Shown: in pieces, positions 1,581 through 63,112 of the stretch
Layout of the letters: each line of letters starts with the position of its first letter
Numbering within the stretch: position 1 is the stretch's first letter
Assembly (NCBI GenBank): GCA_965209035.1
Contig: OZ242372.1
Span: 512,001 to 576,000, forward strand
Length of the DNA stretch: 64,000 bases
Direction: 5' to 3'
Source of the DNA: Gammaproteobacteria bacterium
Lineage (GTDB): Bacteria > Pseudomonadota > Gammaproteobacteria > CBDBNL01 > JAAOII01
Program-made: the position numbers and the translations under genes
Notes under the pieces: model-generated
What the model was told of the DNA's origin: nothing
Database searches by the model: none
The model's input: the letters and a program-made list of their open reading frames with translations, nothing else

Positions 1581-1656
1581 TGAAATAAACTCCATAAATT
1601 GAATATAAATTATTTATCCAAAATTATAACATAGATTTCAAGTTGACCTAGTGTGT

Positions 1657-1752
1657 TGTATCATCCCAACCAGTTTCGGACTCTTTGCGTTTTTGCCTGT
1701 TTTTGTCCAAGCCTGTGGGAGTGGTTAACGCGCATAACGCGCATAATGGGGA
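1657..1752 (-). mobile_element. Decayed right end of the IS481-family element
   Basis: TGTATCATCCCAACCAGTTTCGGACT...GCATAATGGGGA resembles the reverse complement of the intact IS right end (TGTATGATCCCACCCATTTCTGGACT...GCATAATGGGGA). Confidence 0.65.
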
Positions 1753-1898
1753 TGCCGGGCAGTTTGACAGTTTGATATACCCGGCACAGATAAAAGCCTG
1801 ACTTATGCATGTCGGTTTGCCGTATCTCTATAATGGAATATGATTAACCGCACATTAATAAATAGTCACGAAATAATAACGAAAATAACGAATACCCG

Positions 1899-5218: not shown

Positions 5219-5389
5219 ATGCCGCCTCAAATCCAGATCCCGCCAAAGTACTGTCCAAACTAAAATATACCGACCGAAAGAACCATAGCAGCCGCAGCGA
5301 TTCTGCCGGTCGCCTGTGATAAAATTAAACAATTAAAGCATTAAACTATATCGAAATCAAATTACCGCATAAGCCTTACCAAGCAATCA

Positions 5390-6844
5390 ATGAAATTTTT
5401 ATTAGAATCTAAGTCAAAAATAAGTAACGAACCGGAATACTACGAATACGGCAGACACGGTATTTCCGCCGAACAGATAAACCCGGTCGCTTTGACGGCG
5501 GTTCGCCGCTTAAAAGGAAAAGGGTATCAGGCTTATGTTGTCGGCGGTTGTTTGCGGGACCTCTTGTCGGGTGTAGATCCCAAGGATTTTGATGTGGTAA
5601 CAGATGCCTTGCCGCAACAAATAAAAGAAGCATTACCCGGCTCTATCATCATTGGGAAAAGATTTCAATTGGTGCATTTTCGTCGCAAAAAAACTATCAT
5701 TGAAATTTCCACTTTTCGGGGCAAACACAAAAGCGTTCTCAAGCGCTTCTTTCTCTTTTTCTTACTCATTCTTGACCGGAGGCGGCAACAGTACATCCGC
5801 CACAATACTTTCGGCACCATGGCCGAAGATGTGCATCGTCGCGACATCACCATTAATGCTCTTTATTATGACCCCGATAAACAAATTATTATTGATCATG
5901 TGGGCGCGATGCAAGACATTCAAAACAACATAGCCCGCATGATCGGCAACACAGAAACAAGATTTGAGGAAGACCCTATGCGAATGATCCGAGTCCTGCG
6001 TTTTGCGGCAAAACTTGATCTGCAATTGGCGCCGGACATTGAGCCCGCCATACGCAAAATGCATCAACATATTGACAAACTACCCAGTGCCCGACTCTTT
6101 GATGAGTACTTAAAACTGTTTTGCACCTCGCACGGACTTAAGAGTTACGAGATGATCAAAAAATTCAATCTCTTCGGTTATTTCTTTGTTCAAACGGAAG
6201 AACCGCTCAGCCCGGTCGATGAAAAAATTATTCTCGCAGCTCTGCAAAACAACGATGAAAGAATAACCAAGCATCTTTTTTACACACCGGCTTTTTTATT
6301 AAGTATTTTTCTTTGGTTTCCTTACCGGGACAATCTGCAAAAACACTTTACCGACAAGAATGAAAAGAAAAAAAACAGATATGGTTATTTTTGTGAAAAA
6401 CACGAACAAACCTGCCGCGAACTTTTTTATGAGCAGAAAAACATCATGCTGGTATTCCATAAGTTTAAGGAGCGAATCAACAATATTTGGGGGATGCAAT
6501 ATAACCTGTTACGGTGTGACGAAGAACATACAAATCGTGTGACGACTAAAAAAGATTTTCCGATCAGTTATGACTTTTTGAAATTATTGGCTGTCGGTTA
6601 TCCGGAAATGGAGGTCGCGGTAAACTTCTGGAAAAAATTTTCCCACCAAAAGAAACAGCAACACAAAAAACAAGAGTTTAACAAAGCACATAGTCCGCTT
6701 GACATTAAAGAGATGAAGGAGATGCCAAAAAAACGGAAAGGGCACTCTTCTCGGCATTCGAGGTATTCCTCGCCTTCCCGACTGGAAGATCCGGCAAAAA
6801 GCAAAGAACAGAACTCATCCGGTCAGCCGGAAGACACTTCTTAA
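5390..6844 (+). CDS. pcnB: Poly(A) polymerase I
   Basis: VGGCLRDLL..PKDFDV, PAP-type signature IIGKRFQLVHF, RRDITINAL, EDPMRMIR; followed by folK. Confidence 0.9.
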   Translation: MKFLLESKSKISNEPEYYEYGRHGISAEQINPVALTAVRRLKGKGYQAYVVGGCLRDLLSGVDPKDFDVVTDALPQQIKEALPGSIIIGKRFQLVHFRRKKTIIEISTFRGKHKSVLKRFFLFFLLILDRRRQQYIRHNTFGTMAEDVHRRDITINALYYDPDKQIIIDHVGAMQDIQNNIARMIGNTETRFEEDPMRMIRVLRFAAKLDLQLAPDIEPAIRKMHQHIDKLPSARLFDEYLKLFCTSHGLKSYEMIKKFNLFGYFFVQTEEPLSPVDEKIILAALQNNDERITKHLFYTPAFLLSIFLWFPYRDNLQKHFTDKNEKKKNRYGYFCEKHEQTCRELFYEQKNIMLVFHKFKERINNIWGMQYNLLRCDEEHTNRVTTKKDFPISYDFLKLLAVGYPEMEVAVNFWKKFSHQKKQQHKKQEFNKAHSPLDIKEMKEMPKKRKGHSSRHSRYSSPSRLEDPAKSKEQNSSGQPEDTS

Positions 6845-6864
6845 ATTAAACGCCGATCTAAAAG

Positions 6865-7482
6865 ATGCTTAGGCAATGCTGTCTGGGCCTGGGTGCCAAT
6901 CTTGGAAATCCTGTTCGCCAAATTGAAGATGCTGTCCGCGAATTATTTTCTCTGCCGGGGGTAACCGACTGTTGTTGCTCTTCGTTGTATATTTCTCATG
7001 CCATGACCAAAGAGAACGAATGTCAGGCCGACTATGTCAATGCGGTTGTCAAACTGCGGACGGATATGCTGCCGGACGAGTTACTAAAACAAACCCAAAG
7101 AATTGAAATCAAAATAGGACGCAGCAAGAAAAACGGGAAAAACGGGAAAAACGGGAAGAACGGGGAGAGCAAGGTATGGCAACCCAGAGTAATGGACATA
7201 GATATTTTACTTATGGGGGACCTGGAAGTATCCGAACCGAAACTTACCCTGCCACACCCGGGATTATTTGTGCGCCCTTTTGTTCTTTATCCGCTTAATG
7301 AAATATTGCCGAATCTCTCCCTTGGCAACGGCAGCACGGTCAATTCCTGTGCCGTCGCGGTCAAAGACCTGTGGAATACGCGCCGGCTTGAAGATACCCG
7401 ACAAAACAATGTAAAAGAAAGGAAACAACCGGCGGCACTCGGCGACTGCGGCGAAGTTACCGCACTGAACACACTCCAATGA
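6865..7482 (+). CDS. folK: 2-amino-4-hydroxy-6-hydroxymethyldihydropteridine diphosphokinase
   Basis: LGLGANLG, YVNAV, WQPRVMDIDIL, LPHP..RPFVL; contains a KNG x4 insertion. Confidence 0.93.
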   Translation: MLRQCCLGLGANLGNPVRQIEDAVRELFSLPGVTDCCCSSLYISHAMTKENECQADYVNAVVKLRTDMLPDELLKQTQRIEIKIGRSKKNGKNGKNGKNGESKVWQPRVMDIDILLMGDLEVSEPKLTLPHPGLFVRPFVLYPLNEILPNLSLGNGSTVNSCAVAVKDLWNTRRLEDTRQNNVKERKQPAALGDCGEVTALNTLQ

Positions 7483-7895
7483 GTTTTGCCAAATATTTGA
7501 AAAAGAGTATCCGATTCGCAGTTCTTCCGCTACTGCTGGTCGGCTGTATCTACCGACTTGAAATCTCTCAAGGAAGTATTCTAAAAAAAGAAGATGTGGA
7601 AAAATTAAGAATCGGGATGAACAAAGCACAAGCGGAGTACATTCTCGGCGGCCCCAGCCTGGACCCGACTTTTGATCCGAACAGGTGGGATTATGTTTAC
7701 AGATTGATAGATCGTAAGAAGCGCATCACCTATAAAAAAGGATATCTCATCTTTGAGGACGACATCTTGACCGAAATTCATATGGAAGCATTCGCCGAAG
7801 ATAGCCCGGAAGAAAACCCCAAAGAAAGCCACAAAGATAGCCCGGAAGATAATCCCGAAGATAAAAAGCCTTTAAGAAAACAAAGAGGCGAGTAA
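7479..7895 (+). CDS. bamE: Outer membrane assembly lipoprotein BamE
   Basis: Lipobox LVGC, ISQG, GMNKAQAEYILGGP, RWDYVY. Confidence 0.9.
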   Translation: MSFAKYLKKSIRFAVLPLLLVGCIYRLEISQGSILKKEDVEKLRIGMNKAQAEYILGGPSLDPTFDPNRWDYVYRLIDRKKRITYKKGYLIFEDDILTEIHMEAFAEDSPEENPKESHKDSPEDNPEDKKPLRKQRGE

Positions 7896-7896
7896 G

Positions 7897-8274
7897 TTGA
7901 GTAAGTTAACAACCCAAACTCCCGCCAAGGTACATTCATCCGCCAAGGCGCATTCACCCGCCAAGGTGCGTTTGCCCGCCAAGGTGCGATTAGAAGTTGC
8001 TTTGGCTTTGCCGGAGGAACAACATATCGCCAAGGTTTCTGTCCCGCCCGGAACGAACATTTTGCATGCCATAGAACTTTCAAACATTTTTGAACTGTTT
8101 GATCGGGAAGTGCCGGCGGAACTGCATCGGTTGGAATACGGAGTTGGTATTTCGGGCAAGGAAATCAAACAACCCGCGGAATATATTCCCCAAAACGGCG
8201 AGCGAATAGAAATTTATCGTCCCCTGTTAATAGACCCGAAACAAGCCCGGCTGAACAGAATCCGGAAGAAATAG
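7897..8274 (+). CDS. rnfH: RnfH/RatB (YfjF) ubiquitin-like protein
   Basis: GVGISGK, GERIEIYRPLLIDPKQAR; start uncertain (TTG, N-terminal PAKV repeats). Confidence 0.85.
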   Translation: MSKLTTQTPAKVHSSAKAHSPAKVRLPAKVRLEVALALPEEQHIAKVSVPPGTNILHAIELSNIFELFDREVPAELHRLEYGVGISGKEIKQPAEYIPQNGERIEIYRPLLIDPKQARLNRIRKK

Positions 8275-8296
8275 TCTTCGTTACAGAGGTTCTTCT

Positions 8297-8761
8297 ATGG
8301 CAAAAAAAAAGACTTCGCCGAACAGCATCTGTGAAAACAGGCGCGCCCGGCATGATTATGAAATCCTTGAAAAATTTGAAGCGGGTATGATGCTGCAAGG
8401 CTGGGAAGTCAAGTCGCTGCGCGAAGGCAAGGCCCAGATTATCAATTCTTATATTCGCTTTCTGGGAGACGAGTTGTTTTTAGTCGGCGCACACATTCAA
8501 CCGCCCGACCATATCTCGGCACAGACAGATTACGACGAGGGACGCAGTCGCAAACTATTGATGCAACGCAAAGAGATCAACAAAATTAAAGGCTCTCTGC
8601 AAACCAAAGGGCTTGCATGTGTCCCGCTAAGATTGAAATGGAAAAAGCAGTTTGTCAAATGCGATATCGCACTGGGGCGCGGGAAAAAACTGCACGACAA
8701 ACGTGCCGCCATCAAAGAACGCGATATTCAAAGAAGTTTGCGAAAAAAAGAGGATTACTAA
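8297..8761 (+). CDS. smpB: SsrA-binding protein
   Basis: NRRARHDY, EAGMMLQGWEVKSLR, RKLL, GKKLHDKR. Confidence 0.96.
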   Translation: MAKKKTSPNSICENRRARHDYEILEKFEAGMMLQGWEVKSLREGKAQIINSYIRFLGDELFLVGAHIQPPDHISAQTDYDEGRSRKLLMQRKEINKIKGSLQTKGLACVPLRLKWKKQFVKCDIALGRGKKLHDKRAAIKERDIQRSLRKKEDY

Positions 8762-9049
8762 TACCGGTTACCGGGCTGAAATACAAAAATATTTTTGTAA
8801 GGTGTTTGATTGATAAGATTTGATTGATAAGAAAAAATCCCTATAATAATAAGTGATATGGCGAAGAGAAGTAAAAAACCGTTCTCCCTGTTGATGGTTT
8901 TTGTCGGTCCGATTGGAACCGGAAACGAGGGATTTTTTAATGCCGGTGATTTTTGTCCTTTTTGTTCTTTTTGTCCTTTTTGTAATGCCTTTTTCCGGCA
9001 ATTTTTGGCTGAGAGCAAAATTTTACCCTCCAAACCGGAAGAACGAATT

Positions 9050-9395
9050 GGGGGCGTCAGGTTTCGACGTCCTATGGAAGCTTGTAATAGCATGCCGAGT
9101 TGCGGAAACTCGTAAAACTTTCGCAGCCATTAGTAACCGGCGAAGAAAATAGTTACGCTCTGGCTGCTTAACGCAGCCTCTCTGTGAATTGCCCGTCCCG
9201 GGACGCGATTTACAGAGTCGGAAACCCGGGATAGTCAGATCTTCTTTCTTGCGGAAGGTCGGGCGAAACTCTTGCAAGACATTTGCCGGCACAAATGTGC
9301 CGTTTCATTAACCGGCAAATAGTAAGAAGCGGCTATGTATGTAGAAGTTACCGGCAGATATTTGACGGACGCGGGTTCAATTCCCGCCGCCTCCA
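9050..9395 (+). ncRNA. ssrA: tmRNA; tag peptide (A)GEENSYALAA at 9139-9171
   Basis: 5' GGGGGCG pairs with 3' CGCCTCC-A (G3:U pair); GTTTCGAC D-loop-like segment; T-arm GCGGGTTCAATTCCCGC; tag ends YALAA-stop; downstream of smpB. Confidence 0.95.
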
Positions 9396-9478
9396 TTTTT
9401 GGATTTTTTAATCTTCCGCAACAGACTGCGGATGACATCAAGAACATTACAAACCAATGGTTACTAATTAATAAAAGA

Positions 9479-11089
9479 ATGACAACAGAACTACAACAAC
9501 ATAAAAAACAGATTAAGGGACTTGATATGCGACAAGAGTTTGTCAATAACCCGCACAGGTTTGCCGATTTTTCGGCATCCGCGTGCGGTATCTTGCTGGA
9601 CTATTCCAAGAATCTGATCACACCGGAAACAATGCGTCTCTTAATGGCACGGGCAAAAAACCTCAAAGTGACACAGCAACTACGCCGCCAAGCCCGCGGT
9701 GAACATTTGAATTACACGGAAAAGCGTGCCGTCACCCACACTCTGTTGCGCGCCGAACCGGAAGATCCGGAAGCCGGGGCAAACGACACCGTGTCCGCGT
9801 TATGCCGGGAATCTAAAGAAACTCGGTTAAAAATATATGCCCTGCGAGAAGAACTAACCGGCAAGAGGCTGCGCGGTTTTTCCGACAAGATACTGACAAA
9901 CCTGGTGAACATCGGCATAGGCGGTTCGGATTTGGGACCCTATATGGTGTGTAACGCGCTGCCGGCGGCAGCGGGCGCACCGAAAGTGCATTTTCTTGCA
10001 TCACCGGACGGTCTCGGCGAAATCCTTGCCGAAACAGACCCGGCAACCACTTTGTTTGTTGTCTCTTCAAAATCTTTCGGCACCGGCGAGACTCTCGCAA
10101 ATGTTCGGGCTCTAAAAAGTATTTACGCAGGACTGGGGGCGGGAGAAAAATTCTCGCGCCATCTGTGTGCGGTGACCTCCGCGCAGGACAAGGCTATCGC
10201 GATGGGGGTGCCGCGCGAACGCATTTTTCGCATACCCGTTTCTGTCGGCGGGAGGTTCTCGCTGTGGTCGGCAATTGGCTTGCCGATCATCATGCATCTG
10301 GGGCGAGACGGATTTGAAGAACTTCTCAAAGGCGGCAGAGATATGGATCGACACGCGTTGGATACAAAAGAAGAAAACAATTTACCCCTGATCATGGCAC
10401 TCTTGTCTTATTGGTATGGCGTTCATCTCCGTGCCGATACGCACTGCGTGAATGTTTATGAGCATTCGCTGCGGTTGTTTCCGCAATTCTTACAGCAACT
10501 TGTCATGGAAAGTTGCGGTAAAACGGCGACTGCGAGCGGAGAAAGGGTCGCGGTAGGCGGGCACATTCTCTGGGGCGGCGAAGGTCCCAATGTGCAGCAT
10601 TCTTATATGCAATTATGTCATCAAGGGCATCTCCTGATTCCCACCGACATCCTGTTCGGCGGGAAACCGATGCATCCCGAAGAGCCGGATGCCGCCGAAC
10701 GCCACGCCCTCTTGGTAACCAACGCGCTGGCACAGGCGCAGGCATTGCTACTCGGACGGGACAAAGAAGAACTTGCCGAAGCAGCAAGAAAAGCCGGTAT
10801 TGAAGAGCAATTAATTTCTCACCTCGCCATACCGGGCAACCGACCAAGTAATTGCTTGATTTACGAACGCCTGAATGCTCGCTCGCTGGGCAGCCTCATC
10901 AGTTTGTACGAACACAAAACAACTTTCTTTGGGTATCTGACCGGCATCAATCCGTTTGACCAATGGGGTGTGGAATTGGGTAAGCAACTCGGCAGCAGTC
11001 TCGCTTCCGTATTTAACGGTGAAACTGCCGTGCCGGAAAATTGGGATTCTTCCACCGTCGGGCTTCTGAACTTTCTAAAGCGCCTTTAA
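9479..11089 (+). CDS. pgi: Glucose-6-phosphate isomerase
   Basis: IGIGGSDLGP, SSKSFGT, VGGRFSLWS, FDQWGVELGK; start moved downstream of the tmRNA. Confidence 0.95.
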   Translation: MTTELQQHKKQIKGLDMRQEFVNNPHRFADFSASACGILLDYSKNLITPETMRLLMARAKNLKVTQQLRRQARGEHLNYTEKRAVTHTLLRAEPEDPEAGANDTVSALCRESKETRLKIYALREELTGKRLRGFSDKILTNLVNIGIGGSDLGPYMVCNALPAAAGAPKVHFLASPDGLGEILAETDPATTLFVVSSKSFGTGETLANVRALKSIYAGLGAGEKFSRHLCAVTSAQDKAIAMGVPRERIFRIPVSVGGRFSLWSAIGLPIIMHLGRDGFEELLKGGRDMDRHALDTKEENNLPLIMALLSYWYGVHLRADTHCVNVYEHSLRLFPQFLQQLVMESCGKTATASGERVAVGGHILWGGEGPNVQHSYMQLCHQGHLLIPTDILFGGKPMHPEEPDAAERHALLVTNALAQAQALLLGRDKEELAEAARKAGIEEQLISHLAIPGNRPSNCLIYERLNARSLGSLISLYEHKTTFFGYLTGINPFDQWGVELGKQLGSSLASVFNGETAVPENWDSSTVGLLNFLKRL

Positions 11090-51718: not shown

Positions 51719-54121
51719 TTACCGGTCTTGCGCCGAGAGGCCGCCCGGCAGGCAATTCAGAGCCGGGTATTGTGTGCTGTTGCCCAGATTCCAGACGCGG
51801 ACGAAGGGGGCGGGCTCCTCGGTGGTGCTTTCCGCACCGGTGTTCGGGTTGCACCAAGCATTGCCCCAGTCGGCATAGATGCTCCCGGCAAACTCGGTCG
51901 GCGATTGCAAGGCTGTCGTGTTATGACCCTCGCCCAAATTACCGTCACTCATAGACTGCATGGTGGTTTGATTGTCCCAATAGGTGGCAATGACATTGGT
52001 CTCAGGATTGGTGTTGCCGATCAATCCGCCGACAGTACCCTCACCTGAAACAAGCCCGGGGGCGGCATAAGAATAATTAATTTGAGCTTTTTCCCCATAC
52101 CCAACCAGGCCGCCAGCAGCACCATAAGTCTCGCCGCCGCTCCCGGAAACAATTCCGCCGAGCACATAGGCATAGCGAATATCCGCATTCCTACCAAACC
52201 CAACCAGGCCGCCAACATGAACAAGCCCGGAAACATTTCCGCCGGACACGGACGCATAGCGAATATCCGCATTCTCACCATGCCCAACCAGGCCGCCAGC
52301 AAAATCCCCGGAAACATCCACACCGGACACGAACGCATAGCGAATATCCGCATTTAGACCATTCCCAGCCAGGCCGCCAGCTCTATTCTCGAAAGCATTC
52401 CCGGCAACACTTCCGCCGGACACGGACGCATTGCGAATATCCGCATTCTCACCATACCCAACCAGGCCGCCCACACCCACATTAGTGGCATTGCCTCTGA
52501 CATCCGCATTCCGGAGATGCAGATTTTGGATATCGCCGGTTAAGGCACCAAACAACCCCACTCCATAGGCAGTATTGTTCGCAGAGATGAACAGATCGGC
52601 AATACGATAACCGCCGCCGTCAAAGATTCCGGTATAAGAGGTGCAAACATTCACAACGGAACAAGAGCCGATCGGCTGCCAACCGCTGCCGGTCGTCCAA
52701 ACAACTTGATTGCCACTGCCCGCGGCATAGGAATCCGCATCGCTAAAATTCAACGAGCGAGTTAATTCATAACCCACACAGCCGCCGTCATCGTCATCCG
52801 GGCAACCCATAGAACCCACAGAGGTGATCTCGGGGATAGGGCCATCATCCGCCCCATCGCCGTTCAGATCATCGCGCAGCCGCGCCAAGTCATCCAAAGT
52901 GTGGATCTCGATCAAGCCATTATTATCGTCATCCACATCCTCTGTCAAGGTAGTATTCACATCGGTCCTGCAGCCGGCAGATAATCTGTCCGGTGCTCCG
53001 TCTCCATCCGTGTCGGCGCTCGCACAGGCATCCGTCACAAACGCATCGCCCGGATCCGCCACGCCATCATTGTCATCGTCCGAATCTTCATCTGTGTCGC
53101 GACAGCCGTCACGGTCATGGTCCGCGGACGCATTGGAAGTCCAGCCGGTAACACCGGTCGGGCAAAGATCTGTTATATCCTCCACACCGTCATTGTCATC
53201 ATCTTCATCACAGGCATCACCGCCGTCATCCGCATTGTCCGTGTTGGCTTGGTCCGCATTGGCAACCAACGGACAATTATCGTTATCATCATCCCTATCG
53301 TCATTGTCATCGTCCGAATCTTCATCTGTGTCGCGACAGCCGTCATCGTCATGGTCCGCGGACGCATTGGAAGTCCAGCCGGTAACACCGGTCGGACAAG
53401 TATCGGCCGTATCCGCCACGCCATCATTGTCATCGTCATCATCACAGGCATCACCGCCGTCATCCGCATTGTCCGTGTTGGCTTGGTCCGCATTGGCAAC
53501 CAGCGGACAATTATCGATATTATTATCCTCACCGTCATCGTCAATATCTGTGCCTACACCCGCTCCCGCTCCCGTTGTACTTGACACAGGAGGTGAGGCC
53601 ACGATAATGCCGCTCTCATAACGCACCGCAATCGTGATGTGATAGGTGATGTTATTGATTAAGCCCGTAATGTTGTAGATGACCCGAGCACGCGGCGCAA
53701 CATCCGCCATGGCAGAATTAAGTTCTTTTGTGCCGCCATCGCTTGCATTGTCACGGCGTGTGCTAATAACGAACCCGGTGATATTCATCCGGTTCGGATT
53801 AGTCCAACCCACGAGAATATAATCCTCACCGGCCAGAGTCTGCATATTGAAAACAGCCGGGAAATTCTGAGGAACGGGATCGCCGCCGCCGATGCTGCTG
53901 CTGATGCTGCTGCTGCCACAACCTGTCAGGACCAAACCGAACATACCCGCCAGCAGCACACCGTAAAAACGAGCCGGTATGTGCATCCGTCGTGCCCTAC
54001 TGGGTTCGGGAAAAGCCTTAAAGACATTAAAGGTATTAAGGAGACGCACAGATACCGCGCCTCTTTGTTTGCGGCACATTGCTTTCGCCGACCGCACAGG
54101 AAAAAAGTGCAACTGATTCAC
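51719..54121 (-). CDS. Large surface lipoprotein (FN3-like, TSP3-like, GLUG-type repeats), paralog of 15636-18197
   Basis: Lipobox LTGC + poly-Ser; one FN3-like unit; duplicated [15 protein letters not shown] block; shared [15 protein letters not shown] and YADWGN..QYPALNC.PGGLSAQ segments. Confidence 0.8.
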
Positions 54122-54379
54122 TACTTCCTATCATTATTAATTGGAATAATGTACCTTATTATTACATTAAATGAGAGTTGAGGAGTAAAATATGAGCATA
54201 AATGCCGGTAAATACAAGAAAAAAGAGGGTTATTTTCTGTTCGCGACCTTCAGAATGGAAGTTTTGGCAGATCCCCAGGCTGTTTGCAATGGCTCTTGAG
54301 GCAAATGGCAAATTTTTTGAAGTGCATAGGTTGTCAAGAGTATAATTCCCTTATTTAATTTTCAAAATCATGTGTATTC

Positions 54380-54523
54380 TGTATGATCCCACCTATTTTC
54401 GGACTTTTTTTGTTTTTGTAAAAACCGGATCGGCGAGAGTTGTTTGTGAGCATAATGGGGACGTCCGAGATGATACCAAGCCAGCCATGCGATGAACTTG
54501 GCATTGAATGCCGGCATATCCTT
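54380..54523 (-). mobile_element. IS481 right-end relic
   Basis: TGTATGATCCCACC...GCCGGCATATCCTT aligns with the reverse complement of the last ~145 bp of the intact IS. Confidence 0.8.
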
Positions 54524-54681
54524 GGGGGACAGCAGTGCATTCTACAGGCCGTTCAACTAAAACCCAAACAACCCGCTCTGTTGGATCACAAACACTAAGT
54601 GCAAGCCAGGGCTGGCAGGGTATAAAAACGGCTCGCAAACCCTTATAAAATCAAGGTTTTTAATAAGTTTCCTAAGTCAAG

Positions 54682-54726
54682 ATTTTTTCTAACGACCACC
54701 CTTCTTCTTTTGTCAGCATCTTATAA
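54682..54726 (+). repeat. 45-bp direct repeat, right copy
   Basis: Matches 50975-51019 with 1 mismatch. Confidence 0.92.
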
Positions 54727-54826
54727 TATATTCTTGTAACCGGTGCTGCACCGACTATTTGAATTCGTGTGAACATAAAGCACCGGCTACTTGAATTTAG
54801 ATAAAAAAACATTAATAGTATTACAT

Positions 54827-57175
54827 ATGCCTAACATTACTCGCGAACAAAAAGAAAAATATCTGAAGCAATTATCCGCGGAGGAATTTAAGGCAAAGGT
54901 GATTCGTCCGCTTTTTGAAAAAATGGGCTACGGCAGCGGTAAAAACATTGACAGAAGTTCGCAAGATTCCGCGAGTGTTTTATTTATAGACAAGGACAGA
55001 TTGGAGGATATCAGAATTATTCGAGTGATCCCGCATCTCAAGAACATCAATATGGTCAAGACAAGCAAAGAAGAAGTGGAATCTCTAATTCAAACTGTTC
55101 GCTCCGCTTGGCAAGAAAACCTTCGTTTGGAAAATAGCAACAAGAAAGTTCACTGCGATGATATTATTATTTGTTCCACGGGAAAAATTAATGATAAGGC
55201 GGAAAACTATATCAAAAAACAGACAAGCGGTAAAGAACCGAGATTATTCGATTTACAGCGTCTGATCGGCTTAGTGGATAATCATTGCGAGGAGATATGG
55301 AAAAAAGTATCACCGGATGTCATTTTATATTACAACTTCTTGCGGGGTAACATTGAGCAAGACCTCAAAGATCCTTTGGCAACATCCGTGGATAACGAGC
55401 ATTATATTCATCTTAATCTCGGCAGACACATAGCCAAACCTAAAAAGATTGACGGGGAAATAAAACGAGTCCCCGAGTACACGAGTATTGAAGAAACGGA
55501 ACTTCTCCGGCAGAAACATCCAAAATGTATCATTCGCGGCGACGCTGGGATGGGTAAAAGCACTATTTTGCGGCGGTTGGTCTATCAGATTACTCAATAT
55601 TCTCTTCAGGATGAGGGGATGAAACCGATTTTGTTGCTGCCTCAAGATGTGGAAGTATTTGCCGATGCCGATGCGGATACTTTTGTTAAGAAGTGCGATG
55701 CTCATTTCAAAAAATGTATGAATCAACCCGAACAAGTATTCAGTCAGTCCGACTTTGAGCAAGGCAAGGTAGTTCTTTTAGCAGATGCTCTGGATGAAAT
55801 TGCGGATGACCGGCAAGAAAAATTTATAAAACTCCTCAATGAACTGTCTAAAAGATATCCAAAGGTCAAGATCATTTGCACATCAAGACCGGGACAACGC
55901 GAGAAAAAAATGGTTCGCGATGAAGGATATGTGCGGTATGATGTCTCTCATATCAGTTGGCGTCAGGCTCAAAAATTGCTTTCTATTATGAAAAAAGAAG
56001 GGGACCTCCCCCGGTCTATTGCTTCGGAAGTTCTGCGTCGGATCAACTCCATCCATGGCTTGGATCTCACGCCGCTTCTTGTTAAGGTTTTTGCGGCAAC
56101 TTTGACATACTCGCGTCAGGATATACCCGCAAACATTACCGAGTTGTTTAGCAAGTATACCGAACTGATGCTTGGCAGGTGGGATCAAGACAAGGGGTTT
56201 GAGCAGCAATATGAGGCAAACTTAAAGATTTTCCTAATGAAAAAATTGGCGGGATGGATGCATGACAACCGGGTCAGTCACATATCGGAATACAATTTCA
56301 AAAATATCATTGAAGAGGAGATGAAGTCGCGCGGCTACGAAATTAAAATAGAAGAGATTTGCACCGAAATGTTGGAACGATCCGGGCTATTGAAGCGGCG
56401 CGGCGATGCGATACTTTTTACACATCATTTGTTACAAGAATTTTTTGCCGGGATTGGTATATCGGACTTAGACAAAGATGAGATATTCAAAAAATTTGGC
56501 AACCGCTGGTGGACGCGCCCTTTGATGTTTTATTTCGGCAATCGACCGGACGCCATACACAGGCTGGAACAAGCACAAGAAAAAGTATCAACGCGTAAAA
56601 AGTTGGATCCCTATGAAGTTTCCTTGGCGATAGGATTATCATTACAAGCATGCTATCTTTCCGAAGTTTCTACAAGACTGGATATATGGAAAACATTGAT
56701 AAACAACATTGCTATGATCAGCACGCCCCAAGACAAATCTAAAGTTCTATTTCCTCTTTTTGATTCTATGTTCCCTTATGCTGTTTTGCGCGAAGCCGTC
56801 CCTTTGTCTGTCTTAAAAGATCCTTGGAATCAAGAGGAGCTAACCGAATGGTCAAAAACTGCGGATGAGGGTAAGTTTTGCTGGTTTCTCATCGCCTTGA
56901 TGGAAACCGGTTGTTTTGAGAAAGCACACCAACTCATTAAAAAAACAAAGAAATGGAAAAATTCGTTTTATCCGTTTATTTTGTATTGGCATTCCGGGTT
57001 TCTTATGAGGGTATCTGCAATCTCACCGGAACAAAAGAAAACGGTCAATTTAATACGCACCGAATTGGATAAAAGAAATGGTGTGGAATTAATGGAGTTT
57101 CGACGGGAAATTGTAAGAGAGATTGACACCTATTTTTCTTCACCCGATAAAAGCCTGAAAAATGATTCCAAATGA
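54827..57175 (+). CDS. NACHT-family STAND NTPase with N-terminal Mrr/REase-like domain (apparently degenerate)
   Basis: Walker A IIRGDAGMGKST, Walker B LLADALDE, ICTSRP, TPLL, FTHHLLQEFFAG; N-terminus EEFK..VIRPLFEKMGY ... IIICSTGKIN; start taken at ATG 54827. Confidence 0.85.
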   Translation: MPNITREQKEKYLKQLSAEEFKAKVIRPLFEKMGYGSGKNIDRSSQDSASVLFIDKDRLEDIRIIRVIPHLKNINMVKTSKEEVESLIQTVRSAWQENLRLENSNKKVHCDDIIICSTGKINDKAENYIKKQTSGKEPRLFDLQRLIGLVDNHCEEIWKKVSPDVILYYNFLRGNIEQDLKDPLATSVDNEHYIHLNLGRHIAKPKKIDGEIKRVPEYTSIEETELLRQKHPKCIIRGDAGMGKSTILRRLVYQITQYSLQDEGMKPILLLPQDVEVFADADADTFVKKCDAHFKKCMNQPEQVFSQSDFEQGKVVLLADALDEIADDRQEKFIKLLNELSKRYPKVKIICTSRPGQREKKMVRDEGYVRYDVSHISWRQAQKLLSIMKKEGDLPRSIASEVLRRINSIHGLDLTPLLVKVFAATLTYSRQDIPANITELFSKYTELMLGRWDQDKGFEQQYEANLKIFLMKKLAGWMHDNRVSHISEYNFKNIIEEEMKSRGYEIKIEEICTEMLERSGLLKRRGDAILFTHHLLQEFFAGIGISDLDKDEIFKKFGNRWWTRPLMFYFGNRPDAIHRLEQAQEKVSTRKKLDPYEVSLAIGLSLQACYLSEVSTRLDIWKTLINNIAMISTPQDKSKVLFPLFDSMFPYAVLREAVPLSVLKDPWNQEELTEWSKTADEGKFCWFLIALMETGCFEKAHQLIKKTKKWKNSFYPFILYWHSGFLMRVSAISPEQKKTVNLIRTELDKRNGVELMEFRREIVREIDTYFSSPDKSLKNDSK

Positions 57176-58403
57176 ATTAAAACAACTCGTCGAAAACGGT
57201 GAGAATTCCAAAGTTGAATTTAAAGACGATCAAGTAAACGGTGAGAATTTGGCACGTGCGATGGTCGCTTTTTTAAATTCCAACGGCGGGCGGATATTCT
57301 TAGGTGTTGAGGATAATGGCAACATCAAAGGTATGGTTATCACAAATAAGGCAATGGAAGAGAAAGTGATGAGTTGGGCTCACAATTTAATTCAACCGCA
57401 GTTCACCCCGAACTGGGAGACGGTGATGATGGGCAATGGCAAACGAGTAGCGATTATTGAGTTACCAAGCCAGGCACCGGACAAACCCTATAAAGCAAGG
57501 GTAGGCAAGGTATGGAAAATTTTCACAAGAAAGGGAAGTCAAATAAGAGAAGCATCCCGAGAAGAAGAAGCCCGCCTTTATTATGCTTCACCGATTGGCC
57601 ATCGTTATGAGACCAAACCTATTGTCGGCAGAAACCTAAAAGACCTGAGCATGGATAGGATAGAAACCTATTTTCGTAAGAGAGGCATTCCAAAATACCT
57701 GCCCCTCCAAAACAATACCAAACAATGGGAGTCCCTGCTAATGAATACCGACTATGCGGTAGAATTTAACCGGCAAGTAACTCCGAATGTGACGGGGATG
57801 CTATTATTTGGTGTGTCTCCATACCAGTTTATGAAGCAATCCGGTATGAGAATAGTTGCGTTCTCGAAGACGGAGAAAGATTATGATTACGAAGGAGATG
57901 ATTTTCGCAGTGCCCTGATACCCGTCCAAAAAGAAGACGGCGAGATCATAGAGCCGGGATTATTTGAGTTGGCATTGCAATTTATTAACCGATTTGTCCG
58001 GCGAAACCGCCTAAACAAAAAAACAGGAAGACGCGTAGAAGAAACAGATTATCCGGTAGAAGTGATTCGCGAAGTTTTGGCAAACGCAATCGTACATCGC
58101 GAGTATGCCCTTGTGCAACAAGAAATTCAAGTTCATATTTACTCCGATAGAATGGAAGTGATTTCACCGGGAGGACTGCCGGACGGCGTCACCGAAGAAA
58201 AGATAAGAAATGGTGTTACCGCAGCGCGTAACCCCACACTGCGAGATGCTATGAGCGCATTTGGATATGTCGATAAAATTGGTATGGGTATTCCCACAAA
58301 AATTATCAAGGGAATGCAAGAACATAACGGGACCGAACCCGAAATCATTCCCAAAGAGGACCTTTTTACTGTGCGTTTATTTAATCGGCATTCAGCCCGC
58401 TAA
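57162..58403 (+). CDS. Schlafen/AlbA_2 domain + HATPase_c_4-like domain protein
   Basis: GENSKVEFK, VAFLNSNGG.IFLGVEDNG, REVLANAIVHREY, ISPGGLP, RNP.L, GMGI; overlaps the NACHT gene by 14 nt. Confidence 0.85.
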   Translation: MIPNELKQLVENGENSKVEFKDDQVNGENLARAMVAFLNSNGGRIFLGVEDNGNIKGMVITNKAMEEKVMSWAHNLIQPQFTPNWETVMMGNGKRVAIIELPSQAPDKPYKARVGKVWKIFTRKGSQIREASREEEARLYYASPIGHRYETKPIVGRNLKDLSMDRIETYFRKRGIPKYLPLQNNTKQWESLLMNTDYAVEFNRQVTPNVTGMLLFGVSPYQFMKQSGMRIVAFSKTEKDYDYEGDDFRSALIPVQKEDGEIIEPGLFELALQFINRFVRRNRLNKKTGRRVEETDYPVEVIREVLANAIVHREYALVQQEIQVHIYSDRMEVISPGGLPDGVTEEKIRNGVTAARNPTLRDAMSAFGYVDKIGMGIPTKIIKGMQEHNGTEPEIIPKEDLFTVRLFNRHSAR

Positions 58404-58485
58404 CACAACACTTGTTTTCAAATATTTATGCTCCGTTTTAAGTTTTTAAGCACTCCGGGTGTTGCACCGGAAGGTTAAATTCACC

Positions 58486-58513
58486 TTCCTTGAATTTTAC
58501 AAAATTCAAGGAA
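58486..58513. terminator. Perfect 13-bp inverted repeat between convergent genes
   Basis: TTCCTTGAATTTT-AC-AAAATTCAAGGAA; AT-rich, so could equally be a protein-binding palindrome. Confidence 0.4.
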
Positions 58514-58583
58514 ACATTTCACGGTGTTGCACTAATTACTTGAGTTCACAGTTCATTAATTCTGGCATTAATTACATCATTCT

Positions 58584-59789
58584 TTACTGCCAGCCGATTA
58601 AAGGATAATCCAATTTCTTGGCAAACGCAGAAAGATACTTTAACTTGAGTCCGGTTAAATCATAAATGTCCCGTGCCATAATGAAGCCACTTTGATAGGC
58701 ATCCAACACGCAGCGCGAAAAATATGTGCCACAGTGCTTAATAGCGGTATTTTCAGGCACAGTGATACCACCCGGCTGCTTATTATCAAACGGTCCGGGG
58801 GTATATTTATCAAGTAACTCCTCTAACTTATTTTGATCAATGAAGTGATTCTGCCGCGCTTGGACCGCCAGCATCTGACGACTCACTTTAATTTCATTTG
58901 CTATTTCTTCAATTTGTGTTCCTGCATCCTCTTGCCGCAACCATACCCGACCCAACCAATCGCTTGGAGCAATCACTTCGGCCGCCACCCTGTTACACCA
59001 TCGCTCTTTTTGCCGAACCTCCTTATCCGCAATATCTTCGTAATACTGACTGCGAAAATTGATAACCGACACAGCGGTATCGCCCAACAACAAATGTGCC
59101 AATTCATGCATCAATGTAAAAATAGAGCGAGCACTTCTAAGCTTCCTCCCCGGATTAAGTAAAATCACAGGGGCTATTTCATCCGGAATTGCAAGCCCGT
59201 CATATTCCTCGGAAGTAATCTTATAACTTTTGTGTGTGTCATTTGTTAGCACCGGAATACCTCTCTTCTCAACGGCATCACGCCACAGATCAAAAGCATC
59301 TTCAACACTGCCACAACCCCGCACAGTTTCAACTGTTACACCCAACCACTCCCGGATCCTAAACGCCGACTCAGCCGGCGTAAGAGTCATATCGGCAGCA
59401 AACGGCTGGGCAAAATTCTTTTGGCCGGTTTCTCGTAAATAGTCTCTTAACCAACGCTGCCGCATGCGTGCCTCTCTGATAGCAAAACGCAAATTGGGTA
59501 AATAAGGTTTTTTCTGTTCATCACGCCTAAAATCAAGCGGCAATTCATCCGGCAGTTCCGCGGGCAATTCTTTCAAACAAAAAAGAATATAAAACACACG
59601 ATACTTCGTGGCAAGTTTTTTTGCTTCAGTTAAAGTGGGTCGCTCCTTCCCGCTTTCCCAAGAGCGAATTTTTTCCGCAGCATCCTTCACTCCGGACAAC
59701 GACACATCTTCCGGCCGCCCATAACCCACTCTTTCCCGTATCCCCTTCAAAGTAGAAGGAACGACAGGAAGTATCACCCTGGCAGACAC
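58584..59789 (-). CDS. XRE-like HTH + ImmA/IrrE (peptidase M78) metallopeptidase
   Basis: IRSWESGKERPT..EAKKLA (HTH), FTLMHELAHLLLG (HExxH), ERWCNRVAAEVI.P. Confidence 0.88.
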   Translation of the reverse strand: MSARVILPVVPSTLKGIRERVGYGRPEDVSLSGVKDAAEKIRSWESGKERPTLTEAKKLATKYRVFYILFCLKELPAELPDELPLDFRRDEQKKPYLPNLRFAIREARMRQRWLRDYLRETGQKNFAQPFAADMTLTPAESAFRIREWLGVTVETVRGCGSVEDAFDLWRDAVEKRGIPVLTNDTHKSYKITSEEYDGLAIPDEIAPVILLNPGRKLRSARSIFTLMHELAHLLLGDTAVSVINFRSQYYEDIADKEVRQKERWCNRVAAEVIAPSDWLGRVWLRQEDAGTQIEEIANEIKVSRQMLAVQARQNHFIDQNKLEELLDKYTPGPFDNKQPGGITVPENTAIKHCGTYFSRCVLDAYQSGFIMARDIYDLTGLKLKYLSAFAKKLDYPLIGWQ

Positions 59790-60228: not shown

Positions 60229-60468
60229 ACTGTTATTTTACTCCCAATCGGCTCGTTTGAATTCCAATTAGCCCGGTTCGCCTCGCTTCTGTTCCCCCTG
60301 CTACTCCTGTTGTCCGCCGCGCACATCAAAGAACTGCCAATCAAAACCGCCCCCGAACCGCTTCTCGCTTCGCACACAATCTGCCTTACATACGGAATGT
60401 TGCCCGCCAGGGATGCACTTCTATCGAAACAAGCGACATACATACCGGAACGGTTTCCAATGCCCACA

Positions 60469-62634
60469 TTATTTGTCCTTAAAGGACGAAGACCGGCGGC
60501 TACCGTCCCGCGACGGTCTTGCCGAACCGGAGCCAGCATCTCTTTCCCTATCACTACCCTTAAAAGATGAAGACCGGCGGCTACCGTCCCGCGACGGTCT
60601 TGCCGAACCGGAGCCATAACCTCTATCTCTACCTCCAAACGACGAAGACCTACTGCCACCTTCCCGCGGCGGTCTCGCTGAACCGGAACCATAACCTCTG
60701 TCACTGCCCTTAAAGGACGAAGACCGACTGCCACCTTCCCGCGGCGGTCTCGCCGAACCGGAGCCATAACCCCTATCACTACCTTTAAAGGACGAAGACC
60801 TGCGGGCACCATCCCGCGGCGGTCTTGCCGAACCAGAACCAGCATCTCTGTCCCTGTCTCTGTCACCACCTCTAAATGACGAAAACCGACCGCCACCATC
60901 TCGCGGCGGTCTCGCCGAACCGGAGCCATAACCCCTATCACTCCCTTTAAAGGACGAAGACCGGCGAGCACCGTCCCGCGGTGGTCGCGCCGAACCGGAG
61001 CCATAACCCCTATCACTACCCTTAAAGGACGAAAACCGACCGCCACCTTCCCGCGACGGTCTTGCCGAACCAGAACCAGCATCTCTGTCCCTGTCTCTGT
61101 CGCCGCCCCTAAATGACGAAAACCGACCGCCACCGTCCCGCGACGGTCTTGCCGAACCGGAGCCATAACCCCTATCACTACCCTTAAAGGACGAAAACCG
61201 ACCGCCACCTTCCCGCGGTGGTCTCGCCGAATCGGAACCCGAACCATAATCTCTATCTCTAAACGACGAATACCTACTGCCACCTTCCCGCGGAGGTCGC
61301 GCCGAACCGGAACCATAACCCCTATCACTACCTTTAAAGGACGAAGACCTACTGCCACCTTCCCGCGGAGGTCTCGCCGAACCGGAACCATAATCCCTGT
61401 CTCTATCACCACCCCTAAATGATGAAGACCTACTGCCACCATCTCGCGGAGGTCTTGCCGAACCGGAACCAGCATCTCTGTCCCTGTCTCTATCACCACC
61501 CCTAAACGACGAATACCTACTGCCACCTTCCCGTGGCGGTCTCGCCGAACCAGAACCATAATCCCTGTCTCTATCACCACCCCTAAATGATGAAGACCTA
61601 CTGCCACCATCCCGCGGAGGTCGCGCCGAACCGGAACCATAACCCCTATCACTACCTTTAAAGGACGAAGACCTACTGCCACCTTCCCGTGGCGGTCTTG
61701 CCGAACCAGAACCATAATCCCTGTCTCTATCACCACCCCTAAATGACGAAGACCTACTGCCACCATCTCGCGGAGGTCTCGCCGAACCGGAACCGGAGCC
61801 ATAACCCCTATCACTACCTTTAAAGGACGAAGACCGACGGCCACCGTCCCGCGGCGGTCTTGCCGAACCGGAACCGGAGCCATAACCCCTATCTCTACCT
61901 TTAAAGGACGAAGACCCCCGGCTACTATCCCGCGGCGGTCGCGCCGAACCGGAACCGGAACCATAATCCCTATCTCTGTCACCACCCTTAAACGATGAAG
62001 ACCCGCTGCTACCGTCCTCCGGCTGTTTGACGGAGCCGGATCCATCACCACTATCCTCAAATGACGAATACCGGCGGCTACCGTCCTCCGGCTGTTGGAA
62101 CGATGAATATCTGCGGCTACCGTCTTCCGGCTGCCGGAATGTTGAATACCTACGGCCACCGCCCTGCGAACTGAAAGATTGTTTACCCATCGGTTCGTCC
62201 GGATTCTCTTGCCCGTCACGCCCAAAGGACCGGCGGCTATCGCCCCCTCGCTGTTGGACCGAGCCGAACTCATCATCCCCAAACAATGAGGACCGGCGGC
62301 TATCGCCCCCCGGACCGGAAGATTGTTTATTAAGAAGCGGACGAAATTTTTGAGTTAGAAGTTTTTCCGTTTCGTCTCTCGTGTTATCGTCATCTTCATA
62401 AATAATCCAAATGGAATAGGACCCTTTACACTGCCTCAACATTCCATCGCTTTCGTGTTCTTCCAAACGAACAAGAACATCAACAGATTGCCCCACATAC
62501 AGAACATTGCCTGCCAGTGGCGCACTTCCATCGAAACAAACGACATAAATACCGGAACGGTTTTCAATGCCATAATTCTTTGCTCCCAATCTATAAGGAC
62601 CTTGGGGGGAGGGTATATCGTATATTTGCATCAT
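60469..62634 (-). CDS. GIY-YIG nuclease-like domain fused to a ~600-aa R/G/S/D-rich repeat tail
   Basis: SGIYVV...LYVGQS..VLVRLEEH...ETEKLL..KFRPLLN; start taken at ATG 62634; variation between units at the ARP codons is synonymous in this frame. Confidence 0.75.
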   Translation of the reverse strand: MMQIYDIPSPQGPYRLGAKNYGIENRSGIYVVCFDGSAPLAGNVLYVGQSVDVLVRLEEHESDGMLRQCKGSYSIWIIYEDDDNTRDETEKLLTQKFRPLLNKQSSGPGGDSRRSSLFGDDEFGSVQQRGGDSRRSFGRDGQENPDEPMGKQSFSSQGGGRRYSTFRQPEDGSRRYSSFQQPEDGSRRYSSFEDSGDGSGSVKQPEDGSSGSSSFKGGDRDRDYGSGSGSARPPRDSSRGSSSFKGRDRGYGSGSGSARPPRDGGRRSSSFKGSDRGYGSGSGSARPPRDGGSRSSSFRGGDRDRDYGSGSARPPREGGSRSSSFKGSDRGYGSGSARPPRDGGSRSSSFRGGDRDRDYGSGSARPPREGGSRYSSFRGGDRDRDRDAGSGSARPPRDGGSRSSSFRGGDRDRDYGSGSARPPREGGSRSSSFKGSDRGYGSGSARPPREGGSRYSSFRDRDYGSGSDSARPPREGGGRFSSFKGSDRGYGSGSARPSRDGGGRFSSFRGGDRDRDRDAGSGSARPSREGGGRFSSFKGSDRGYGSGSARPPRDGARRSSSFKGSDRGYGSGSARPPRDGGGRFSSFRGGDRDRDRDAGSGSARPPRDGARRSSSFKGSDRGYGSGSARPPREGGSRSSSFKGSDRGYGSGSARPPREGGSRSSSFGGRDRGYGSGSARPSRDGSRRSSSFKGSDRERDAGSGSARPSRDGSRRSSSFKDK
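60475..61990 (-). repeat. Coding tandem array of ~19 units of 75-87 nt (GSGSARPPR[DE]GG.R.SSF...DR)
   Basis: 19 ARP(P/S)R units counted in the translation; unit lengths are multiples of 3. Confidence 0.92.
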
Positions 62635-63112
62635 TAAATATGTATATTGATTTTTAATAAAAGTTCGGCACCGGTCGGGAAAGGATTCAGAGAAAGAGAA
62701 CACTCCCGCCAACCCGTCCCGATTTTGCCTCTCGCCACAAAACGGTATAAAGATAGCATAAAGGCGGCACAAAACGGCATCAATGGCTTCCGCATTGCCG
62801 GTGCCATACCATCTCTCTTCACCCGGTCATTGTCATAATAAACACAGATATTCGGCACACGAGATGCCCCCCCGTTGCGTTTCCAACTGCCTTCACGACC
62901 ACAAGCATGCAAACGATCCGCGCGTGTCCCGGCTTGGCCTGCATCCGCAACTTGTGTTGCTTCGTCATCACAGGCACTACAGACAATACAGGCACCCGGG
63001 TAATTCCCGGTGGCATGACTATCCTTTGAAACAGGTTCTCCAAAAGAATTGCCTAATGAATTGCGTAGCATTTGTTTATCGTCTTCAAACATATTGATAT
63101 CTTTATCCCATC

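Follow-up and report, generated by a model that had tools for sequence, protein, structure and literature searches.

In bacteria, NACHT proteins protect against phage by means of N-terminal effectors; these can be restriction endonuclease (REase) domains, Schlafen domains or non-catalytic 'adaptors' (10.1101/2022.07.19.500537). Prokaryotic Schlafens (pSlfn) cleave transfer RNA (tRNA) once activated (PMC13056530; PMC13462974). The catalytic motif of human and prokaryotic Schlafens is Ex4(E/D)xK, and pSlfn-HisKinase is the commonest pSlfn architecture (PMC13056530). A 2026 preprint counts the 'Schlatpase' supradomain (Schlafen plus PF13749) in 60,692 of 103,533 prokaryotic Schlafen proteins, and reports that Schlafen-GHKL modules tetramerise on ATP, cleave tRNA and cause abortive infection (10.64898/2026.05.29.728809). 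TrlG, a protein of AlbA_2 plus HATPase_c_4 architecture that has been mis-annotated as recG, is known together with TrlF from the 'temperature restriction locus' (TRL) of Photorhabdus laumondii, where point, stop and insertion sequence mutations in trlG, and none in trlF, permit growth at 36 °C, as does deletion of the operon (10.1101/2020.06.02.129163). Since loss of trlG relieves the growth arrest, it is the activity of TrlG that arrests growth. NACHT/STAND sensors and Schlafen tRNA nucleases (tRNases) are common to bacterial and animal immunity, and in bacteria they have so far been described as fusions or autonomous proteins. Here we describe a locus in which a NACHT gene (gene A) and a Schlafen-GHKL gene (gene B) are separate and overlap. 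It lies in a 64,000-nucleotide stretch (hereafter the window) of a Gammaproteobacteria bacterium (assembly GCA_965209035.1, contig OZ242372.1, positions 512,001 to 576,000 of the forward strand).

Genes A and B are co-directional and lie in a GC trough (0.40-0.43 across 54.0-59.8 kb, versus about 0.55 on both flanks). The open reading frame of A opens at a TTG at 54791; we took the ATG at 54827 as its start. We consider it fairly probable, judging from sequence comparison, that the two genes form an operon in which a NACHT sensor works with a Schlafen tRNase supplied in trans and which acts by abortive infection. The locus would then probably represent an uncommon, split version of anti-phage systems already known from bacteria. 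The features that carry this argument are, in window coordinates:

54827-57175, plus strand: gene A, an Mrr_cat-NACHT STAND NTPase of 782 amino acids (open reading frame, Pfam, homologues)
54827-55351, plus strand: N-terminal REase-fold pseudo-nuclease of A, residues 1-175 (Pfam, family alignment, hidden Markov model, AlphaFold2)
54878-54880 (A18), 54974-54976 (S50), 55028-55030 (I68) and 55034-55036 (H70), plus strand: catalytic-site codons of A
55526-55957, plus strand: NACHT NTPase module, residues 234-377 (Pfam and invariant columns)
55538-55564, plus strand: Walker A motif GDAGMGKST, with G241, G243 and K244
About 55772-55798, plus strand: Walker B motif LLADALDE, with D320, D323 and E324
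56282-57175, plus strand: post-NACHT helical region, with an nSTAND_NTPase4-like stretch, HHLLQEFFAG and PANITELF-type motifs and the C-terminal presumed sensor
57162-57175, plus strand: 14-nt overlap of A and B, in which the last codons of A (K-N-D-S-K-stop) contain the ATG of B
57162-58403, plus strand: gene B, a TrlG-like Schlafen-GHKL protein ('Schlatpase') of 413 amino acids (open reading frame, Pfam, alignment, fold matches)
57201-57554, plus strand: SLFN_AlbA_2 domain, residues 14-131, including the G48-V-E50-D51 loop (Pfam, alignment, fold)
57201-57224, plus strand: Ex4ExK motif E14-NSKV-E19-F-K21, intact
58119-58379, plus strand: HATPase_c_4/GHKL ATPase-like domain, residues 320-406 (Pfam, alignment, fold matches)

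An initial annotation, made from the sequence without database searches, had taken the N-terminus of A to be REase-like and catalytically dead, with SSQDSASVLF and RVIPH standing at the catalytic positions. Both proposals hold in the comparison with the family. In a protein search with A, 182 of 7998 scored candidates were relatives at E ≤ 0.001, and the best 120 of them were listed; the 115 of at least 760 amino acids were aligned at the N-terminus, and the five shorter ones were left out. Pfam Mrr_cat (PF04471) matches residues 14-149 of A (E = 7.2e-5, 23.3 bits versus a cut-off of 21). The family keeps the REase residues E18 (113/115), D37 (113/115), D50 (112/115), Q68 (111/115) and K70 (112/115); at these positions A carries A18, S37, S50, I68 and H70 and lacks the catalytic set. 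D50, Q68 and K70 are all missing in only three of the 115 sequences, namely the window's A and two relatives, P0009 and P0102. Such a loss of catalytic residues is far beyond chance. A hidden Markov model (HMM) built from intact members only aligned the N-terminal domain of A from end to end (E = 8.7e-37) and placed the same substitutions.

We modelled residues 1-180 of A with AlphaFold2 (AF2) from a 35-sequence alignment (mean predicted local distance difference test, pLDDT, 89.6; predicted template modelling score 0.82). Fold matches included MspJI, EcoT38I, EndoMS, Can2 and AspBHI (probabilities 0.82-0.99), FokI, and Avs4 (8dgf) at rank 50 with E = 0.1. The statistics of these matches are weak (best E = 3.4e-3, none at E ≤ 0.001), so we base the REase fold on the combined evidence of Pfam, family alignment and fold search. 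The proposal that the fused nuclease has decayed is right for the catalytic residues, which are lost, and wrong for the domain, which is maintained. An A orthologue of 93% identity (P0243, on a 27,506-bp contig) shows the same dead signature and differs from A at 4 of 160 positions in residues 1-160, versus 52 of 622 elsewhere (including a 2-residue gap; Fisher p = 0.009). By this comparison the pseudo-nuclease is constrained at least as much as the rest of A. As the REase fold is kept and the changes are few, we regard the domain as a maintained pseudo-nuclease and not as debris; its possible present roles are those of scaffold, adaptor and DNA tether.

The NTPase motifs of A are intact, as had been annotated. 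Pfam NACHT (PF05729) matches residues 234-377 (E = 3.3e-10, 40.5 bits versus a cut-off of 26.7), and an alignment of 48 sequences shows no variation at G241, G243, K244, D320, D323, E324 and the sensor-1 arginine R354. Residues 486-541 give a sub-threshold match to Pfam nSTAND_NTPase4, and the C-terminal region is presumably the sensor. Relatives of A are nearly all about 800 amino acids long, many are annotated as Mrr_cat plus NACHT, and most are single genes; the best non-self identity among the matches listed is 36%. Against PADLOC 2.0.0 and NCBIfam 20.0, A gave sub-threshold matches only (mad8, E = 0.0033; DS8_antiphage, 38.6 bits versus a cut-off of 790; EruA, 16.5 bits versus 1000). A PDB sequence search with A returned RadD at E = 0.77, a chance P-loop match only.

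Gene B likewise has the two domains first assigned to it. SLFN_AlbA_2 (PF04326) covers residues 14-131 (E = 1.8e-18, 67.6 bits versus a cut-off of 25.3) and HATPase_c_4 (PF13749) residues 320-406 (E = 1.6e-21, 76.6 bits versus 26). In an alignment of 42 sequences S16, E19, K21, D23, G42, G43, G48 and E50 are invariant, E14 is kept in at least 90%, and the family-invariant positions further include E304, N308, H312 and R313, just upstream of HATPase_c_4, and an SPG(G)LP stretch. The AF2 model of B (pLDDT 87.2) matches DIP2311 best (3lmm, a structural genomics entry; full length, E = 1.4e-18); its N-terminal part matches human SLFN11, SLFN5, SLFN12, SLFN13 and SLFN14 and the tRNase domain of SAMD9, and its C-terminal part the GHKL kinases PDK and BCKDK. 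B also gave partial matches to PADLOC pAgo/Aga models over the Schlafen-GHKL module only (E = 2e-16 to 8e-18), because SLFN-pAgo shares the Schlafen plus PF13749 module. The 545 relatives of similar length are often mis-named 'RecG', and those among the matches listed are 40-46% identical to B, save P0123 at 94%. No fused, longer form of B was scored, which is weak evidence. With its intact Ex4ExK and GHKL motifs, B is a putative tRNase effector.

Is the adjacency of A and B conserved? We scanned a single genome per species with the patterns PANITELF and H[HLF][LM]LQEFFA, which yielded 41 A loci from many phyla; seven, truncated or broken, were set aside, and 34 hold a full-length A. Of these 34, 33 retain the complete catalytic set. 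A translationally coupled downstream gene of at least 300 amino acids is found in only two, L010 and L033, and the downstream neighbours at the other loci are unrelated (thymidylate kinase, IS1595 transposase, peptidases, NOV_C, type I methylase). L010, from a Spirochaetaceae metagenome-assembled genome (MAG), carries the same pair (locus coordinates):

5974-8283: A of L010, Mrr_cat plus NACHT, with E, D and QxK intact
8270-9496: B of L010, SLFN_AlbA_2 plus HATPase_c_4, with Ex4ExK intact

The A proteins of L010 and the window are 33% identical and the B proteins 40%, and the overlap is again 14 nt (8270-8283) with the same geometry, A ending in K-N-x-x-x-stop and the ATG of B beginning in the N codon. 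The 14-nt overlap first noticed in the window (57162-57175) is therefore part of a conserved, translationally coupled unit. We note that two tandem AAA-ATPase_like plus PDDEXK_9 genes (1559-5435, minus strand) lie upstream of the L010 pair, and that the genome of L010 (G401) has a second, more distant A-family paralogue with no B nearby (L137, C1:1531351-1533453).

The pair is rare. A and B are single copy in their own genome (G000). No further A-B pair was found in 400 additional genomes of its phylum, nor in 400 of the phylum of L010, in searches that scored only two candidates per genome and so had limited sensitivity. Within these sets the A family occurs only in G000 among 401 genomes (a second match covered the NACHT module alone) and only in G401, with its two matches, among 401.

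We built trees with FastTree (LG+gamma, midpoint-rooted) from 150 A sequences (798 trimmed columns) and 199 B sequences (406 trimmed columns). In the A tree the window's A clusters with P0243 and the dead P0009 (support 1.0). Sister to this clade is ((((L002,L036),P0021),P0055),L010) with support 0.89, all inside a clade of support 1.0. In the B tree the window's B groups with P0123 and the B of L010 (0.91), and this clade falls among the TrlF-linked B proteins. P0123 lies on a contig of 27,506 bp, as does P0243. By these topologies the two trees agree, and A and B are co-inherited. The family tail motif LLExRxG is absent from the A proteins of the window, P0243, P0009 and L010, that is, from the pair-bearing lineages and the dead sister, and is kept in L002, L036, P0021, P0055, P0102 and L033. 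Its loss may mark a surface remodelled upon capture of B.

We then asked what B relatives are coupled to elsewhere, using 80 B loci from metagenome contigs (L044-L123), 48 of which have at least 2.5 kb upstream. A gene of about 900 amino acids stands directly upstream of the B relative in 49 of the 80; the count is 48 of 69 among loci whose upstream sequence exceeds 300 bp and 36 of 47 where it exceeds 2.7 kb. The upstream genes that we sampled encode PHP plus AAA_23/SMC_N/AAA_21 domains and match NF045780, 'TrlF family AAA-like ATPase', at 528-541 bits (cut-off 350); these TrlF-like proteins are related to the anti-phage protein Ppl. A DUF1156/HmaB-type methylase follows directly downstream in 19 of the 55 B loci with enough downstream sequence, and a layout of TrlF-family PHP-ABC ATPase, TrlG-like gene and DUF1156/HmaB methylase recurs (e.g., L055 2294-9301, L077 and L079). 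This layout resembles a modification-linked defence module that has yet to be characterised. In the own genome of the window, NF045780 found no TrlF above the cut-off (best 46 bits versus 350). Given the single copies of A and B, A is thus the only candidate NTPase partner of B. By its domains and gene context, B is a TrlG-like putative effector without the usual NTPase partner.

These counts also bear on whether A and B are two independent defence genes that share an island, with B an autonomous tRNase and A an effector-less NACHT protein that is inactive or works in some other way. The families mostly live apart: an A homologue was found in 0 of the 80 B loci (tblastn, E ≤ 1e-3, with the upstream lengths given above), and 31 of the 34 A loci have no coupled partner. 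Schlafen-GHKL modules also occur as stand-alone proteins (10.64898/2026.05.29.728809). However, the same 14-nt overlap has been kept in a different phylum at 33-40% protein identity, and A and B are placed congruently in the trees. The frame and NTPase motifs of A are intact and its dead domain is constrained, and B relatives are usually coupled to an NTPase, TrlF, that is absent above the cut-off from this genome. We therefore judge independence to be unlikely.

The initial annotation had further inferred that the effector role passed from the decayed nuclease to the Schlafen partner. L010 contradicts an acquisition of the partner as a replacement for a dead nuclease, as it pairs the Schlafen protein with an intact E/D/QxK nuclease; since B is kept there beside an intact REase, pairing probably preceded nuclease loss. 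The second coupled locus, L033, is informative in another way:

5980-9236 of L033 (Eremiobacterota MAG): NACHT family member with a degenerate REase domain, followed by a PIN_8 gene at 8292-9236

Its N-terminal domain is homologous to the family (E = 4.7e-14) and degenerate (E18 replaced by S, an 8-residue deletion removing the D37 loop, QxK changed to LxC), and its PIN_8 gene (E = 4.9e-44) overlaps A by 4 nt. On sequence criteria, L033 is a second, independent arrangement of a dead cis nuclease plus a trans nuclease. L033 and P0102 sit elsewhere in the A tree, far from the clade of the window, so their nucleases were inactivated independently. A dead nuclease coincides with a coupled partner in 2 of 2 loci versus 1 of 33 with an intact one (p = 0.005), counts that leave out the contexts of P0009 and P0102. 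That the effector role has passed to B is an inference, one strengthened by L033 and by the published data on TrlG and Schlafen-GHKL proteins.

A different division of labour is conceivable, in which the roles are reversed or shared: B would sense foreign nucleic acid or regulate A, and A would act through its NTPase and pseudo-nuclease, e.g., by DNA binding or sequestration, in a TrlF-TrlG-like layout. The NTPase partner has a nuclease domain of its own in L010 (REase) and in TrlF-TrlG loci (PHP), so B did not stand alone as effector in the ancestral layouts. Moreover, AlbA_2/SAMD9-type folds bind DNA and RNA (fold matches 7ksp and 7q3z), and a conserved dead REase domain could still bind DNA. 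However, the Ex4ExK catalytic motif, invariant across the family of B, is complete in B, and A has no remaining enzymatic output domain besides its NTPase. In Photorhabdus it was trlG, not trlF, whose mutations relieved growth arrest (10.1101/2020.06.02.129163). We consider such a reversal quite unlikely.

Several observations weigh against a NACHT sensor acting through a trans Schlafen effector, or against the history that we propose for it. (i) The nuclease of L010 is intact, so B does not depend on a dead nuclease and may do something other than stand in for an effector. (ii) The A tree groups L010 with partner-less members (0.89) and not directly with the lineage of the window; as L002 and L036 have no adjacent B, a single origin of the pair requires later loss of B. 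(iii) The B clade (0.91) could reflect long-branch attraction, both pair lineages being on long branches. (iv) The pair is represented by three instances, and in one of them, P0243/P0123 (93-94% identical), adjacency is inferred from contigs of equal length (27,506 bp). (v) Without the index case, the association of dead nuclease and partner falls to 1 of 1 versus 1 of 33 (p = 0.059). (vi) The acidic residues D42, D47, D55 and D57, together with K72, lie near the old active site of A, making a remodelled site possible; the dead sister P0009 has none of these substitutions, which counts against it. (vii) As we read Taboada et al., protection was reported for two of the seven systems tested (DUF262 and Ig-like fusions), and so not for the Slfn-HisKinase constructs (PMC13056530); defence by the stand-alone Slfn-HisKinase architecture is thus unproven. 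Stand-alone genes of this type may need an NTPase partner, which may explain the missing protection in that study (PMC13056530).

The sensor-effector pair that we favour could work as follows. A phage cue would bind A, presumably through its C-terminal helical region, and the triggered A would oligomerise with ATP. The A oligomer would then license or nucleate the ATP-dependent oligomerisation of B, through the pseudo-nuclease or another surface. B would cleave tRNA, translation would stop and phage replication would fail. A complex prediction for A residues 1-560 with B, each supplied as an alignment, scored 0.00 against a mark of 0.32; run without controls, it speaks neither for nor against binding. 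As to history, we suppose that an Mrr-NACHT gene on a single occasion captured a TrlG-type gene, whose usual partner is a TrlF PHP-ABC ATPase. The resulting pair would have been kept with an active nuclease, a stage that may be preserved in L010, and the now-redundant cis nuclease would have been inactivated in the lineage leading to the window and P0009.

A bolder extension, possible but in our view doubtful, is that the dead REase is a pseudo-enzyme adaptor, a docking or nucleation platform that assembles the captured trans effector, and that in STAND immune proteins, as a rule, the cis effector is lost after a trans effector has been captured. If true, the adaptor would be a bacterial counterpart of adaptor-domain-to-effector signalling in NLR (nucleotide-binding leucine-rich repeat) proteins, and the rule would have been caught at three stages, with L033 and its PIN gene as an independent parallel.

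The surroundings of the operon contain the following further features:

51719-54121, minus strand: GLUG/TSP_3/fn3 surface protein of 800 amino acids, 5' of the operon on the opposite strand (domain matches)
58469-58499, plus strand: terminator-like hairpin (58469-58489) with a T-rich tail, 3' of gene B (consensus scan only)
58584-59789, minus strand: fusion of HTH_3 with Peptidase_M78 (ImmA/IrrE), inside the low-GC stretch and convergent with gene B (Pfam)
60469-62772, minus strand: 767-amino-acid open reading frame without a Pfam match (a homologue was found in none of 20 relatives; only in the own genome)

The terminator scan returned 11 sites versus 6.5 expected. The GLUG surface protein is one of a very large set of paralogues, with 112 matches in the 2.24-Mb own genome; four genomes of the same family hold 2-22 apiece. 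The ImmA/IrrE gene gives weak PADLOC matches to CapP, PD-Lambda-2_B and RmrA, and could be an island regulator or a separate defence-associated gene. We rejected it for now as a third component, as the gene adjoining the L010 pair is unrelated and the neighbour has no counterpart there. The 3' end of the 767-amino-acid frame holds four tandem copies of a unit of about 75-81 nt (60467-60800; 76-85% identical over 103 nt).

The intergenic DNA on either side of the operon (54156-54682 and 58486-58556) consists of dispersed repeats. The own genome matches positions 54150-54830 at least 49 times, including some 35 copies of a module of about 144 bp (54380-54523), and 58404-58600 a further 19 times. 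The repeats are multi-copy in two read runs (X1 and X4), with a word depth of 836 versus about 30 in X1. No Rfam family matched them. Part may be the shared upstream region of GLUG paralogues, and the remainder looks MITE/REP-like (miniature inverted-repeat transposable element; repetitive extragenic palindrome). A search for island boundaries found no tRNA, no flanking direct repeats and no Rfam match. The reads of X1 and X4 gave no clean joint excising the island, and the flank proteins were uninformative for its boundaries in 20 relatives. The signs that the A-B operon was horizontally acquired are the GC trough and the occurrence of the A family in G000 only among the 401 genomes of the phylum.

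This setting also bears on whether the operon has a function outside defence, as a stress or temperature growth-arrest module like the Photorhabdus locus or as an addiction module that stabilises the island. Temperature-restricted growth is the only published phenotype of the TrlG type that we found (10.1101/2020.06.02.129163), 30.4% of pSlfn genes lie away from known defence genes (PMC13056530), and the neighbours here are not classical defence genes, save the HTH-ImmA/IrrE gene. On the other hand, NACHT/STAND-nuclease architectures and Schlafen fusions have repeatedly been shown to act against phage, and defence genes typically display what is seen here: sporadic occurrence across phyla, a low-GC island and swapping of partners. 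We hold a non-defence function to be very unlikely.

The locus suggests that NACHT and Schlafen can work as separate, exchangeable subunits, with a Schlafen-GHKL family plugged into either TrlF or NACHT. Together with its relatives it provides a natural series, from the single-gene nuclease-NACHT through a pair with both nucleases intact (L010) to a pair with a dead cis nuclease (the window). Such a series is useful for studying how an immune receptor swaps its effector and how a dead enzyme domain is turned into something else.

Among described systems, the NLR-related REase-NACHT bNACHTs (e.g., bNACHT25, Kibby et al., 10.1101/2022.07.19.500537) share with A the order REase fold, NACHT and short helical C-terminus. 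The bNACHTs are essentially single-gene systems, as is the A family (10.1101/2022.07.19.500537). In contrast to bNACHT25, A has lost the REase residues and is coupled to a second gene, and the likeness is at the level of architecture only. Schlafen-NACHT fusions (bNACHT34; SLFN-NACHT, 10.64898/2026.05.29.728809; cluster 5, PMC13462974) unite the same two modules, with NACHT as the switch and Schlafen as the RNase. They do so in one polypeptide with an N-terminal Schlafen, whereas the window has a separate downstream Schlafen protein bearing GHKL and a dead REase in the N-terminal slot. Avs proteins with Mrr- or Cap4-like effectors join a STAND NTPase to an N-terminal PD-(D/E)xK nuclease, as A does in layout. 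A differs in having NACHT and not an Avs-type STAND, no detected TPR sensor, a dead nuclease and a second gene, and it has no PADLOC Avs match.

On the side of B, the TRL operon trlR-trlF-trlG is among the closest: B has the architecture of TrlG (about 410 amino acids), and in both loci an NTPase gene precedes the Schlatpase gene coupled to it. The gene upstream of B is NACHT/STAND and not a PHP-ABC ATPase, and trlR and the DUF1156 methylase are absent. The link from B to TrlG was made through TrlF-adjacent homologues (40-46% identical) and not through the P. laumondii TrlG sequence. The SLFN-pAgo 'Schlatpase' (RzAgo; 10.64898/2026.05.29.728809), RorSlfn5, EcoSlfn7 and Cash combine a Schlafen Ex4ExK nuclease with a PF13749 GHKL domain, as B does. 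In SLFN-pAgo and other pSlfn the sensor (Ago core, Ig-like domain or Csx15) is fused in cis, whereas the candidate sensor of the window is a separate NACHT protein. The tRNA cleavage and ATP-driven oligomerisation that we propose for B are borrowed from studies of these proteins.

The initial annotation knew of no named system with this layout, and the PADLOC and NCBIfam results agree. In the accessible parts of the literature that we searched on NACHT, Schlafen, Schlatpase and TrlG, fused SLFN-NACHT is described and the split layout is not, although supplementary architecture and operon tables, which lay outside the search, may list it; the accessible part of a paper on STAND pattern-recognition receptors (10.64898/2026.01.04.697583) likewise holds nothing on it. 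Three features set the locus apart from these systems: the two-gene split, the pairing of a TrlG-type Schlatpase with NACHT instead of TrlF, and a REase domain that is dead yet conserved.

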